From: a virus
Lineage: Duplodnaviria; Heunggongvirae; Uroviricota; Caudoviricetes
Strand: one strand, 5' to 3'
Length of the DNA: 19,373 nucleotides
Virus record (IMG/VR): IMGVR_UViG_2617270959_000004
Part shown: positions 925-18,754 of the stretch, piece after piece
How the letters are laid out: every line of letters begins with the position of its first letter
Position numbering within the stretch: the stretch's first letter is position 1
The notes under the pieces: generated by a model
Told to the model about the DNA's origin: nothing
What the model saw: the letters and a program-made list of their open reading frames with translations, nothing else
Database searches by the model: none
Made by a program: the position numbers and the translations under genes

Positions 925-3024
925 ATGGGTTTTTCATCAGCCCGAAATTTGGGAAGGGACATATCGGCAGGATTTTCCCCACCACGTCGCATGCCGATTT
1001 CGGAGGCTGTTAAAAAATTCATGCGTGTTCCCAAGGGGGCTGGTAACTCGGTGCCATGGGATCCTGAACTGACACCCTACATCATTGAGCCCATGAACTG
1101 CCTGGCATCGCGTGAATACGATGCGGTGATTTTTGTTGGTCCTGCGCGAACAGGGAAGACCATTGGTCTGATCGATGGATGGATTGTCTATACCATCGTT
1201 TGCGATCCTTCGGACATGCTCGTTGTGCAGATGACCGAAGATAAGGCCCGCGAGCATTCTAAAAAGCGCCTCGACAGAACGTTCAGAAGCAGTGCGGCGG
1301 TAAAGAAAAGAATGAGTCCACGTCGTAACGACAATAATGTCCATGATAAGACGTTCAGGGATGGCTCGTTCCTTAAAATTGGTTGGCCCTCGGTCAACAT
1401 TATGTCGTCGTCGGATTACCGGTTTGTCGCCTTAACCGATTACGACCGTTTTCCGGAGAATATCGACAGCGAGGGTGATGGTTTCTCCCTGGCCTCAAAA
1501 CGTACCACCACATTTATGTCCGCCGGGATGACTCTGGTGGAGAGCTCGCCGGGACGTGACATCTGCGACAGCAAATGGCGACGTAAGTCGCCTCATGAAG
1601 CGCCACCGACGACTGGTATTCTTTCCCTTTACAATCGTGGTGACCGCCGCCGCTGGTACTGGCCATGTCCGCACTGCGGTGAATATTTTCAGCCAGCTAT
1701 GGATGCCATGACCGGCTACCGTAATGAACCGGATCCCTTTAAAGCCAGTGAGACGGCGTATCTACTTTGCCCGCACTGCAGCGGCATTATCACTGCGGAG
1801 AAAAAGCGTGAGCTCAATAGTGCAGGAGTCTGGTTGCGTGAAGGTCAGGTCATTGATCGTAACGGCAACGTTTCCGGTGAACCGCGCCGCTCCCGTATCG
1901 CCAGTTTCTGGATGGAAGGGCCAGCTGCTGCGTATCAGACCTGGGCGCAACTGGTTTACAAATTACTGACTGCAGAACAGGAGTATGAAGCGACAGGAAG
2001 CGAAGAAACACTCAGGGCGGTTATCAACACCGACTGGGGATTGCCTTATCTTCCTCGTGCCAGCATGGAGCAACGAAAAAGTGAACTGCTTGAGCAGCGG
2101 GCAGAGCCAGTTCCTTCCTGCAGTGTGCCGGATGGCGTTAATTTCCTTGTGGCGACAGTGGATGTTCAGGCGGGACGTCATCGCCGTTTTGTGGTTCAGG
2201 TAACTGGCTATGGCAGTCGTGGCGAACGCTGGATTATTGATCGTTACAATATCACGCAGTCATTGCGCAGTGACTGCGACGGGGAGAGCCAGCGAATTGA
2301 TCCGGCCAGCTATCCGGAAGACTGGGATGTCCTGCTGACGGATGTTTTTCATAAAAGCTGGCCGCTGGCCTCCGATCCTTCTCAACAAATGCGACTGATG
2401 GCAATGGCGGTGGACTCCGGCGGTGAAGACGGGGTCACTGATAATGCCTATAAATTCTGGCGTCGTTGCCGTCGTGATGGCCTTGGTAAACGTATTTACC
2501 TGTTTAAGGGCGACAGCATCCGGCGCGCAAAACTGATCACCCGTACATTCCCTGATAACACCGGACGAACGGGCCGACGGGCGCAGGCCGCAGGTGATGT
2601 GCCGCTCTGGCTTCTTCAGACGGATGCACTGAAAGACCGGGTGAATAACGCGTTATGGCGTGACTCGCCAGGTCCCGGCTATGTGCATTTCCCTGACTGG
2701 CTGGGGAGCTGGTTTTACGACGAACTGACGTATGAAGAGCGGAGCAGTGACGGGAAATGGAGTAAGCCGGGTCGCGGTGCCAACGAAGCTTTTGACCTGA
2801 TGGTGTATGCCGAGGCTCTGGTCATTCTGCATGGATACGAAAAGATCCGCTGGCCGGATGCACCGGAGTGGGCGAGCCGGGAAACCTGGCTGGAGTGTGT
2901 CCCGGACAGTACCGAACCGTCACCCTCACCGGAACCGGTATCCACGCCTGTTAAAAAACAAAAACGGAAGAAAACAGTAACTGACGATGTTAACCCCTGG
3001 CTGACTTCCGGAGGATGGTTATGA
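925..3024 (+). CDS. Terminase large subunit, gpA family
   Basis: 699-aa ORF with AGGAGG at 915-920; Walker A VGPARTGKT at 1138-1161; paired CPHCG/CPHCS motifs as in lambda gpA-type terminases; located upstream of portal. Confidence 0.9.
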   Translation: MGFSSARNLGRDISAGFSPPRRMPISEAVKKFMRVPKGAGNSVPWDPELTPYIIEPMNCLASREYDAVIFVGPARTGKTIGLIDGWIVYTIVCDPSDMLVVQMTEDKAREHSKKRLDRTFRSSAAVKKRMSPRRNDNNVHDKTFRDGSFLKIGWPSVNIMSSSDYRFVALTDYDRFPENIDSEGDGFSLASKRTTTFMSAGMTLVESSPGRDICDSKWRRKSPHEAPPTTGILSLYNRGDRRRWYWPCPHCGEYFQPAMDAMTGYRNEPDPFKASETAYLLCPHCSGIITAEKKRELNSAGVWLREGQVIDRNGNVSGEPRRSRIASFWMEGPAAAYQTWAQLVYKLLTAEQEYEATGSEETLRAVINTDWGLPYLPRASMEQRKSELLEQRAEPVPSCSVPDGVNFLVATVDVQAGRHRRFVVQVTGYGSRGERWIIDRYNITQSLRSDCDGESQRIDPASYPEDWDVLLTDVFHKSWPLASDPSQQMRLMAMAVDSGGEDGVTDNAYKFWRRCRRDGLGKRIYLFKGDSIRRAKLITRTFPDNTGRTGRRAQAAGDVPLWLLQTDALKDRVNNALWRDSPGPGYVHFPDWLGSWFYDELTYEERSSDGKWSKPGRGANEAFDLMVYAEALVILHGYEKIRWPDAPEWASRETWLECVPDSTEPSPSPEPVSTPVKKQKRKKTVTDDVNPWLTSGGWL

Positions 3025-3233
3025 ACCAGAATGATATCGAAGCCATGATTCAGCGTTATACGGAAGCTGAAATGGCGGTGCTGGACGGAAAATCCGTCAC
3101 CTTTAATGGTCAGCAGATGACCATGGAAAACTTATCTGAGATCCGGCAGGGACGGCAGGAGTGGGAGCGCCGCCTTGCGGCTCTGATTACACGACGACGG
3201 GGGCATCCCGGGTACCGGCTGGCGAGGTTCTGA
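3021..3233 (+). CDS. gpW-like head completion protein
   Basis: 70-aa ORF between terminase and portal, the lambda W position; ATGA start/stop overlap with the terminase stop; GGAGG 6 nt upstream; C-terminal RRRGxPG resembles remembered lambda gpW (...RRRGPAGFYV). Confidence 0.6.
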   Translation: MNQNDIEAMIQRYTEAEMAVLDGKSVTFNGQQMTMENLSEIRQGRQEWERRLAALITRRRGHPGYRLARF

Positions 3234-18300: not shown

Positions 18301-18754
18301 CTGTCGGGTTCTGGGAAAACTGTCCGCCAACCAGATTGAAGGCGATCTCGTTAAAACAGTGGGCAAAGCTTTCCCCCGGGACTCCCGTGCACCGGAGCGG
18401 TGGCCATCAGGGACCATTACCGTCAGGGTTTATGACGATCAGCCGTTTGACCGGCAGATTGTTATTCCGGCGGTGGCATTCAGCGGCGCTAAACATGAGA
18501 AAGAGCATACTGATATTTACTCCTCATGCCGTCTGATAGTGCGGAAAAACGGTGCTGAAATTTATAACCGTACCGCGCTGGATAATACGCTGATTTACAG
18601 TGGCGTTATTGATATGCCTGCCGGTCACGGTCACATGACGCTGGAGTTTTCGGTGTCAGCATGGCTGGTAAATGACTGGTATCCCACAGCAAGTATCAGC
18701 GATTTGCTGGTTGTGGTGATGAAGAAAGCCACCGCAGGCATCAGTATCAGCTGA
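15359..18754 (+). CDS. J: Central tail fibre / host specificity protein J
   Basis: GGAG at 15347-15350; 1131 aa; N-terminal ~980 residues nearly identical to remembered lambda gpJ; C-terminal ~150 residues diverged. Confidence 0.95.

Follow-up and report, generated by a model that had tools for sequence, protein, structure and literature searches.

Among the prophages of Escherichia coli O157:H7 Sakai, Sp4 carries a nu1 gene disrupted by an insertion sequence (IS) (Asadulghani et al. 2009, PMC2669165). Sp4 has further defects in its head and packaging genes, and its packaging was shown experimentally, probably via the terminase of Sp14 (PMC2669165). The locus described here is similar to Sp4 in that it belongs to a lambdoid prophage, has a morphogenesis region in lambda order and carries a small-terminase gene interrupted by an IS. 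Conversely, it has a DUF1441-type small terminase, IS1F as the inserted element and otherwise fully intact late genes, and it is not known to have a helper.

A second set of known systems comprises cdtI, mEp460, Tritos, PhiR47_1, Ayreon and HannyBb, temperate lambdoid siphoviruses whose head module is Gifsy-2-like, to which the late arm studied here aligns with 95-98% nucleotide identity and in the same gene order. Unlike in our locus, in phages of the mEp460/cdtI type, which are deposited as complete genomes, an intact small-terminase gene (terS) lies just downstream of cos; the cdtI and Tritos records begin 185-197 nt upstream of it. In the close relatives of our locus, the mEp460/cdtI-type prophage sits at the Qin site, in the rspB-ydfJ interval. 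The Qin prophage of K-12 is a decayed remnant of a lambdoid prophage at this site.

F-type tailocins and gene transfer agents (GTAs) are also to be considered, as they carry phage tail genes (tailocins) or head and tail genes (GTAs), and a lambdoid prophage without terS would, like them, release tails without infectious DNA. However, F-type tailocin loci have no capsid, portal or terminase genes and possess their own regulators and lysis cassette, whereas the locus studied here has an intact large terminase (TerL), portal, protease/capsid and decoration gene. GTAs are vertically conserved and host-regulated, whereas the junction described below occurs in one assembly, on a branch with one substitution. 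Neither description fits an IS hit in a standard prophage of a single strain.

The window, i.e. the whole stretch of DNA analysed (19,373 bp), corresponds to the entire draft contig JNQC01000044.1 of assembly GCA_000704265.1. Its first base already lies within IS1F, and the view is limited to this contig, from inside the element rightward; the early and lysis regions upstream of IS1F lie beyond it. On sequence grounds, the window is the late arm (packaging, head and tail) of an mEp460/cdtI-type lambdoid E. coli prophage. Its features are the following:

1-709, plus strand: IS1F, nucleotides 60-768 of the 768-bp element (100% identity over 709 nt to annotated IS1F copies)
710-916, plus strand: 3' remnant of terS, codons 108-175, DUF1441/PHROG 141 (window position 710 is nucleotide 322 of the 528-nt gene, NZ_CM128588.1)
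925-3024, plus strand: TerL, GpA-like large terminase, 699 aa (Pfam GpA_ATPase and GpA_nuclease; PHROG 15)
3021-3233, plus strand: head-tail adaptor, 70 aa (PHROG 118)
3233-4741, plus strand: portal, 502 aa (Pfam Phage_portal_2)
4686-6713, plus strand: ClpP-like prohead protease/major capsid fusion (Pfam CLP_protease and Phage_capsid_4)
6737-6757, plus strand: intrinsic-terminator-like hairpin and T-run after the capsid gene (sequence scan)
6800-7123, plus strand: head decoration protein (Pfam Phage_cement_2)
7116-7391, plus strand: 91-aa Gifsy-2-family protein (Pfam Gifsy-2)
7403-7993, plus strand: tail gene Z (Pfam Minor_tail_Z)
7990-8391, plus strand: tail gene U (Pfam Phage_tail_U)
8402-9145, plus strand: V, major tail protein (Pfam Phage_TTP_12 and Big_2)
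9166-9190, plus strand: similar terminator-like site after V (sequence scan)
9206-9592, plus strand: G, tail assembly chaperone (Pfam Phage_TAC_2)
9601-9930, plus strand: T, tail assembly chaperone, -1 frame (Pfam Phage_tail_T)
9902-12967, plus strand: H, tape measure, 1021 aa (Pfam TMP_2 and Tape_meas_lam_C)
12967-13296, plus strand: M, tail tip (Pfam Phage_min_tail)
13306-14004, plus strand: L, tail tip (Pfam Phage_tail_L)
14010-14753, plus strand: K, tail tip (Pfam Prok-JAB and NLPC_P60)
14651-15298, plus strand: I, tail tip (Pfam Lambda_tail_I)
15359-18754, plus strand: J, tail tip/host specificity, 1131 aa (Pfam GpJ domains)
18773-18800, plus strand: similar terminator-like site after J (sequence scan)
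18822-19373, plus strand: gene for an outer membrane protein of the Ail/Lom family, codons 1-184 of 199 (Pfam Ail_Lom, E=5e-109)

All 17 ORFs from TerL to J were assigned to Pfam or PHROG families and follow the lambda gene order, colinear with the annotated phages. The Ail/Lom gene is cut by the contig end and is present in full (600 nt) in the uninterrupted relative L001. Scans of the window found no Rfam families or tRNAs, and for the long ORFs antisense to J and to L/K no Pfam hit exceeded the threshold.

The packaging module is broken, with IS1F located inside the small-terminase gene. The 528-nt terS is cut by the element after codon 107, so that its last 68 codons are all that is left of it in the window and the two-subunit terminase is therefore incomplete. 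The identity of the gene is supported by the match of the full TerS protein to PHROG 141, "terminase small subunit" (E=8e-65), by its Pfam family, DUF1441, and by the orthologous genes annotated as small terminase subunit in cdtI, mEp460 and Tritos; a search of PDB sequences with TerS gave no significant match. The remnant spans only positions 117-177 of the 183 of the PHROG 141 profile and contains a residual ORF of 62 aa (728-916). The presence of an IS upstream of the late genes, as proposed in the sequence-only reading of this DNA, is thus borne out. The same reading held the genes to be intact from terminase to J, which is right for the large subunit and wrong for the small one, the first packaging gene.

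The element was delimited on a complete IS1F copy in L019, from which its length and ends were taken. Its right terminal inverted repeat, ...GGAGTCATTACC, stops exactly at position 709, the terminal base of IS1, as read directly, and phage sequence follows the 709 nt of IS1F without a break. The insA stop is at 270-272 and the A6C frameshift motif at 248-254, while the insB frame contains an internal TAG at 482-484, which interrupts the InsAB' transposase frame. RefSeq flags identical copies as "internal stop" pseudogenes, and the annotation of the copies identical over the 709 nt reads [quoted passage not shown]. The left end of IS1F is outside the contig; a simple insertion with a 9-bp target duplication, expected to be GTCATCGTC, predicts a left join of ...GATGAAGTAGTCATCGTC to GGTAATGCTGCC... 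at that end. We dropped an estimate of IS1F copy number from the 709 nt in the contig: in another draft, JNQB01, a complete IS1F stands at the end of a contig, so repeat content at contig ends is uninformative.

Downstream of the element, the late genes are as the sequence-only reading had described them, i.e. full length, with the lengths of the annotated genes of an uninterrupted prophage and with overlaps of the ATGA/TGATG type preserved (-4 and -1 among TerL, adaptor and portal). Compared with orthologues reconstructed in frame, ORF lengths were equal for 17/17 in PhiR47_1 and 16/17 in Tritos, where the exception is J (1137 aa). More specifically, TerL is intact, equal in length in cdtI and Tritos and identical to that of L001; the protease/capsid, decoration and 91-aa genes (4686-7391, a block in which PHROGs 122 and 153 were also matched) have the lengths found in free phages; Z, U and V have those of PhiR47_1 and Tritos; and M, L, K and I are identical to L001.

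The G-T recoding arrangement, which had likewise been reported as preserved, is base for base that of viable phages. The reading frame of T is -1 relative to G and is open from 9568; G GAA AAG (9580-9586), the putative slippery heptamer, is identical, with its surroundings, in cdtI, mEp460, PhiR47_1 and Tritos. In lambda, the heptamer is G GGA AAG, unlike the one found here. By analogy with lambda G/GT, -1 programmed frameshifting may be expected at this site, with a predicted G-T fusion of 241 aa.

Then, we compared the window with the prophage of E. coli 300033 (NZ_CM128588.1), which lies between rspB/int and pinQ/ydfJ, carries essQ, rrrQ and rzpQ, and has an intact terS and an IS1F in recE. 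Over positions 710-19373 (18,664 nt) the two differ by 16 substitutions and no indels (~99.9% identity). Fifteen of the 16 fall in two clustered patches of J, at 16150-16690 (11 sites) and 18214-18501 (4 sites), and comparison of J with L001 divides these 15 differences into 11 synonymous and 4 nonsynonymous. The sole isolated one is a private point change, G at 10370, giving I157V in H. The region 16120-16720 of J has 99.5% identity to the J gene of a second prophage, at the Rac site, in the same relatives, and the larger patch looks like a gene conversion from this second prophage; the comparison with the putative donor covered this patch only, and the 18214-18501 patch may be of the same kind. 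In a collection of 15 billion proteins, the exact H and J proteins are found only on JNQC01000044.1.

In the sequence-only reading, the intactness of the late genes was taken to argue for a recent acquisition, a recent inactivation or ongoing selection; it is no more than chance would give. Among the 53,208 substitutions possible in the 17 ORFs, 1,847 (3.5%) create a stop, so that at most 0.56 nonsense hits are expected counting all 16 differences, and 0.035 for the one private change. The probability of observing zero disruptions under neutrality is at least 0.57, and ~0.97 on the realistic count. Intactness is thus the neutral expectation, and says nothing on selection. The dN/dS of the late genes, proposed earlier as a check, is 0.17-0.27 against free phages, a value that only mirrors the past of the module as part of a working phage; the branch after the insertion holds one substitution and gives the ratio no power there.

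The junction between IS1F and terS had no matches in 5,426 complete E. coli genomes, nor among the GTDB species representatives. This absence, together with the restriction of the H and J alleles to this contig and with the single private substitution and the two J patches as the only differences from an uninterrupted prophage, supports the earlier suggestion of a recent inactivation. The most probable interpretation, in which we place considerable confidence, is that of an ordinary prophage of E. coli, lambda-like, in which IS1F cut terS very recently and the downstream genes have yet to decay. The 17 genes would be intact because the event is very young, rather than because of selection.

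As for transcription, terminator-like sites follow the capsid gene, V and J, and the annotation of mEp460 places terminators at corresponding positions. With such internal terminators the operon would need a terminator-resistant polymerase, and it is probably read normally by a Q-modified one. The IS had been called polar in the sequence-only reading; the Q protein of lambda is proven to suppress polarity (PMC12360218), and by analogy strong polarity is doubtful, since Q-type antitermination of late transcription would suppress it. A scan of the window found no promoter-like site between IS1F and TerL.

From these elements a predicted outcome can be outlined. IS1F separates the N-terminal two-thirds of TerS from its C-terminal third. 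If TerS is organised like lambda Nu1, the former would contain the cos-recognising helix-turn-helix and the latter should contact the large subunit, and the predicted result is a packaging-null prophage. Upon induction, the Q-modified RNA polymerase that passes the strong capsid, V and J terminators should, judging from lambda, pass IS1 too. The late genes would still be expressed and proheads and tails made, with no cos cutting and no DNA packaging.

In place of a simple insertion, the junction could derive from an IS1-mediated adjacent deletion or rearrangement, a possible but rather unlikely origin that would be recent as well. IS1 is classically able to generate adjacent deletions. An IS1F located upstream would have removed everything up to terS codon 107 (~18.7 kb in the case of the recE copy seen in relatives), including the immunity, replication, Q and lysis genes, cos and the 5' portion of terS, and the late genes would be stranded without late promoter and antiterminator, and silent. 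Coherently with this reading, the recE IS1F of the 300033 prophage, flanked by the 9-bp duplication GGAATCGAG, has the same orientation and is located upstream, 18.7 kb away from the terS breakpoint. Furthermore, in the JNQB01 draft (GCA_000704245.1, with an adjacent accession prefix) the contig with recE::IS1F ends exactly at the right terminus of the element, and the recE 5' junction ORF for this copy was not found in the protein collection. The chimeric TerS(1-110)::IS1F ORF that a simple insertion would create, searched by exact lookup with duplications of 8, 9 or 10 bp, is also absent from the 15 billion proteins, although the collection does hold other ORFs of JNQC01000044.1; each of ten early-region proteins occurs on 590 to more than 1,000 contigs, too many to identify those of GCA_000704265.1. 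The missing chimeric ORF is a hint of a deletion or rearrangement, or just of a break between contigs, and an ORF missing from a collection is weak negative evidence. Partial DUF1441 proteins in the collection were evaluated as the left junction and rejected as ordinary contig-end fragments. Against a deletion, recE::IS1F cannot be an ancestral trait of the clade, since only 1 of the 5,426 complete genomes carries it. In addition, the IS1F of the window differs from the recE copies at IS1F nucleotide 156, where it has the widespread allele, which is weak evidence because a contig-end repeat may be a consensus.

It is improbable that a co-resident prophage with a compatible DUF1441-type terS packages this one in trans, in which case purifying selection would continue. 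The precedent is Sp4, still packaged despite its IS-disrupted nu1, probably by the terminase of Sp14, with which it shares a near-identical cos (PMC2669165), and the larger J patch does show recombination with a co-resident lambdoid prophage. However, the genomes that match a cos-terS query have a median of 1 matching place (maximum 7), and in the closest relative the second prophage with a J, at the Rac site, is unrelated in its head (capsid) and terminase, which are P22-like. Moreover, intactness at such a low divergence needs no selection.

Independent lesions of terS were found in near-identical prophages, namely a 1-bp deletion, nonsense mutations at codons 98 and 99, and insertions of IS66 and IS3. 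Most of these prophages keep the examined head and tail genes intact; two other terS-disrupted prophages have already lost portal to J by deletion. The more decayed versions, L002 and L008, keep only a TerL stump fused to tail-fibre genes. L003 was rejected from the disrupted set, its terS being intact. IS and point lesions cluster at terS nucleotides 290-340, and an insertion hot spot there was considered and discarded: ascertainment explains the cluster, because the loci were retrieved via the 62-aa ORF, which arises only from lesions in that stretch. We regard as highly doubtful that the loss of terS is a recurrent selected step, in which hosts with packaging switched off are favoured or free tails and proheads are kept for use. 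If so, disabled packaging would stop the spread of the prophage or its productive cycle, to the benefit of the host.

Hardly credible is a co-option of the head-tail module by the host, either tailocin-like (free lambda-type tails of the kind known from F-type pyocins) or GTA-like. The sequence-only reading had proposed it, together with ongoing selection, from the 17 intact ORFs and the G-T arrangement, and nothing more speaks for it than these and the free tails that a lambdoid prophage without terS would be expected to release. Conversely, the head genes are all kept, at 99.9% identity to complete prophages and 95-98% to plaque-forming phages, the disruption is unique to one assembly, and the window contains no separate regulatory or lysis cassette and no promoter-like site ahead of TerL. 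Coupled with the neutral level of intactness and the two terS-disrupted prophages that have lost their structural genes, this leaves the claim of a maintained particle without support.

Lastly, an assembly artefact joining IS1F to terS in a truly uninterrupted prophage is extremely unlikely: the element does lie where a draft contig ends, a place in which repeats are often misplaced, but the join coincides with the final base of the IS1 terminal inverted repeat, as a random chimera would not, the 709 nt of IS1F run unbroken into phage sequence, and IS1F sites differ among the near-identical prophages of relatives, so that the element appears mobile in this lineage.

The destruction of the small-terminase gene had been overlooked in the sequence-only reading. 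The prophage is to be scored as packaging-defective, while automated tools would probably call its late region intact. Recombination or a helper terminase could still restore its function, as demonstrated for the O157 Sakai prophages. In general, the observation that all ORFs are intact is uninformative on selection when the nearest uninterrupted relative is 16 substitutions away over 18.7 kb. Beyond annotation, the importance of a very recent IS1F insertion into terS is small, as an IS-disrupted small terminase in a lambdoid prophage is already known from Sakai Sp4. Nevertheless, the locus represents a clean case of the first step of prophage decay, in which a packaging gene has been hit by an IS and the rest is still pristine.

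The window spans the whole of contig JNQC01000044.1, from the draft E. coli assembly GCA_000704265.1 (readable sequence 1-19373), and from 710 onward it carries the late arm of a lambdoid prophage. This arm is found at a coverage of at least 80% in 1,789 of 5,426 complete E. coli genomes, with 99.9% identity in the best 14 matching records among them. The alignment to the uninterrupted prophage of E. coli 300033 (NZ_CM128588.1) places IS1F within the first late gene, and not merely 5' of the late genes: position 710 corresponds to nt 322 of a 528-nt gene. The product of this gene, terS (175 aa, Pfam DUF1441), matches PHROG 141, "terminase small subunit", over its whole length (E=8e-65), and terS is annotated as small terminase in the phages cdtI, mEp460, and Tritos, each of whose records has it as the first gene. 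Only codons 108-175 are left beside the large-subunit gene TerL, and thus the packaging enzyme is broken. The residual ORF of 62 aa covers only positions 117-177 of the PHROG 141 profile.

Copies of the IS1F allele include the following:

Window 1-709, plus strand (same orientation as the phage genes): nt 60-768 of IS1F, 100% identical to annotated IS1F copies
L019 (prophage locus with the complete recE::IS1F of 300033) 16085-16852
L020 (a further IS1F-bearing locus) 1-768

The element ends at 709 exactly with its terminal inverted repeat, ...GGAGTCATTACC. RefSeq labels the copies 100% identical to 1-709 as [quoted passage not shown], and the window allele, with an in-frame TAG at 482-484 in the transposase frame, is flagged as a pseudogene. 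Near-identical prophages of closely related strains nonetheless carry this stop-bearing allele at two sites, one in recE and one in terS. The allele appears to have transposed not long ago, which implies either that other IS1 copies mobilised it in trans or that the stop is read through.

The sequence-only reading had described an intact module from terminase to J downstream of the IS. Since terS is cut, "terminase" holds here for the large subunit only; the 17 ORFs themselves are intact, at the places described and each as long as the annotated gene in the 300033 prophage. Each one falls in the Pfam or PHROG family expected of it (GpA-type large terminase, portal, ClpP-protease/major-capsid fusion, decoration protein, Z, U, V, G, T, tape measure, M, L, K, I, and J among the families found). 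Their lengths match the reconstructed orthologues of PhiR47_1 in 17/17 cases and those of Tritos in 16/17 (J is 1137 aa in Tritos vs 1131 in the window), and closely match those of cdtI and mEp460; these four were counted as viable phages on the basis of complete-phage-genome deposits. The ATGA/TGATG-type start/stop overlaps are kept, as is the G-T arrangement, with T in the -1 frame of G; the T frame is open from 9568 and so overlaps the last 25 nt of G. Recoding and termination features are:

9580-9586: putative slippery heptamer G GAA AAG, base-for-base identical, surroundings included, to cdtI, mEp460, PhiR47_1, and Tritos
6737-6757: terminator-like hairpin after the capsid gene
9166-9190: terminator-like hairpin after V
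18773-18800: terminator-like hairpin after J

In the middle of the tape-measure gene H (11000-12500) the AT skew reaches 0.2-0.3 (A over T), unlike the rest of the window. Two long antisense ORFs, at 15959-17983 (minus strand, 674 aa, opposite J) and 13357-14700 (minus strand, 447 aa, opposite L/K), lie in a region of 58-61% GC; neither has a Pfam match above threshold, and codon composition is their most likely explanation.

IS1 is classically polar, but it is a Q-modified polymerase that transcribes the late operons of lambdoid phages. The three hairpins are strong, intrinsic-terminator-like, and followed by T-runs, and terminators are annotated at corresponding positions in mEp460; terminator-like sites number 36 in the window vs 17.0 +/- 3.8 in shuffles. 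With terminators inside the operon, only a terminator-resistant complex could express it. For lambda Q, suppression of polarity is described as proven (PMC12360218). A scan of the window found no promoter-like site between the IS and TerL. The IS would be expected to act chiefly through loss of the small terminase, not by silencing the 17 genes.

Against the 300033 prophage, 710-19373 shows 16 differing positions and no indels. Fifteen fall in J (11 of them synonymous), in two tight clusters at 16150-16690 and 18214-18501, and the sole isolated substitution is I157V in H. Over the first cluster, the window shares 99.5% identity with the J gene of a second prophage, which sits at the Rac site about 200 kb away in the same relatives; this similarity gives the cluster the look of a gene-conversion tract, not of point mutations, and indicates that co-resident lambdoid prophages have undergone conversion with each other. 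Among about 15 billion collected proteins, the H allele with I157V and the J allele occur in this contig only, and the IS1F/terS junction is absent from the 5,426 complete E. coli genomes and from GTDB representatives. The insertion is young, in agreement with the earlier proposal of a recently inactivated module.

The same reading had taken intactness as a possible sign of selection. Among the 53,208 possible single-base changes in the 17 ORFs, 1,847 (3.5%) create a stop. Without selection, 0.56 nonsense hits are expected if all 16 differences are counted on this lineage (P of none = 0.57), and 0.035 if the single private point change is counted (P = 0.97). Indels arise at about one-tenth of the substitution rate, and allowing for them leaves the conclusion unchanged: the intactness is not beyond chance expectation. 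The overall dN/dS against the four phages is 0.17-0.27, a value that reflects a long history as a working phage and nothing after the insertion.

The 300033 prophage, the closest "uninterrupted" relative, has small defects of its own, namely a truncated ydfR, a frameshifted ynfN, and recE split by IS1F (10294-10629 and 13042-13271 of its locus L001; 16140-16837 of L019). The lineage may already have been gathering lesions outside the late arm.

Disrupted terS copies in other prophages were retrieved with the 62-aa remnant as query and then aligned:

L004 9663-10189, plus three near-identical metagenome or isolate contigs: 1-bp deletion
L007 9662-10189: R99stop
L009 5579-6106: Q98stop
L005 6955-10189: IS66 insertion
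L008 4718-6558 and L002 about 9985: IS3-family insertions

These lesions arose independently in near-identical prophages of other genomes. The genes from TerL to T are still intact in the point-mutant and IS66 copies; in L002 and L008 the whole stretch from mid-TerL to the tail fibres, portal to J included, is gone. Such a series is the expected picture of neutral decay caught at different stages. A lesion hot spot near codons 98-112 was considered and rejected, as the clustering is probably an ascertainment effect of the 62-aa query. The full-length terS allele is found in at least 1,000 contigs vs 82 with the remnant.

As to how the junction formed, we lean slightly towards a simple insertion of IS1F in terS. 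An insertion accompanied by deletion or rearrangement appears rather unlikely, even if an IS1-promoted adjacent deletion from a recE-type copy would give exactly the observed junction, removing immunity, replication, Q, lysis, and cos. In favour of a rearrangement, strain 300033 has IS1F in recE of the same prophage, in the same orientation, 18.7 kb upstream of the breakpoint in terS and with a 9-bp duplication GGAATCGAG, and a 697-kb contig of JNQB01 (GCA_000704245.1), the assembly of adjacent accession prefix, ends with recE::IS1F. Furthermore, the recE 5' junction ORF is recorded from two other contigs only, and the chimeric TerS(1-110)::IS1F ORF that a simple insertion would produce is absent from the protein collection. 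However, recE::IS1F occurs in one complete genome only, and the IS1F of the window differs from the recE copy at nt 156, being identical to the widespread allele. Whether it was a simple insertion or a rearrangement, the event is recent and has left terS non-functional.

Trans-complementation by a helper phage is a real, described possibility, because an IS likewise interrupts the small-terminase gene nu1 of the O157 Sakai prophage Sp4, the closest precedent, and Sp4 is packaged all the same, probably through the Sp14 terminase (PMC2669165). Against it, the median number of matching places in genomes that match the cos-terS query is one, and in the closest relative the other prophage that bears a J gene combines a P22-like capsid with an unrelated terminase. 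A tailocin or gene-transfer particle has no support: no head gene is missing, the module is of a standard type that deposited phages share, and the terS lesion is private to one strain.

The sequence-only reading was correct but incomplete in what it observed, and its interpretation was right only as to recent inactivation. The window is a late arm of an mEp460/cdtI-type prophage, recently inactivated and otherwise ordinary.
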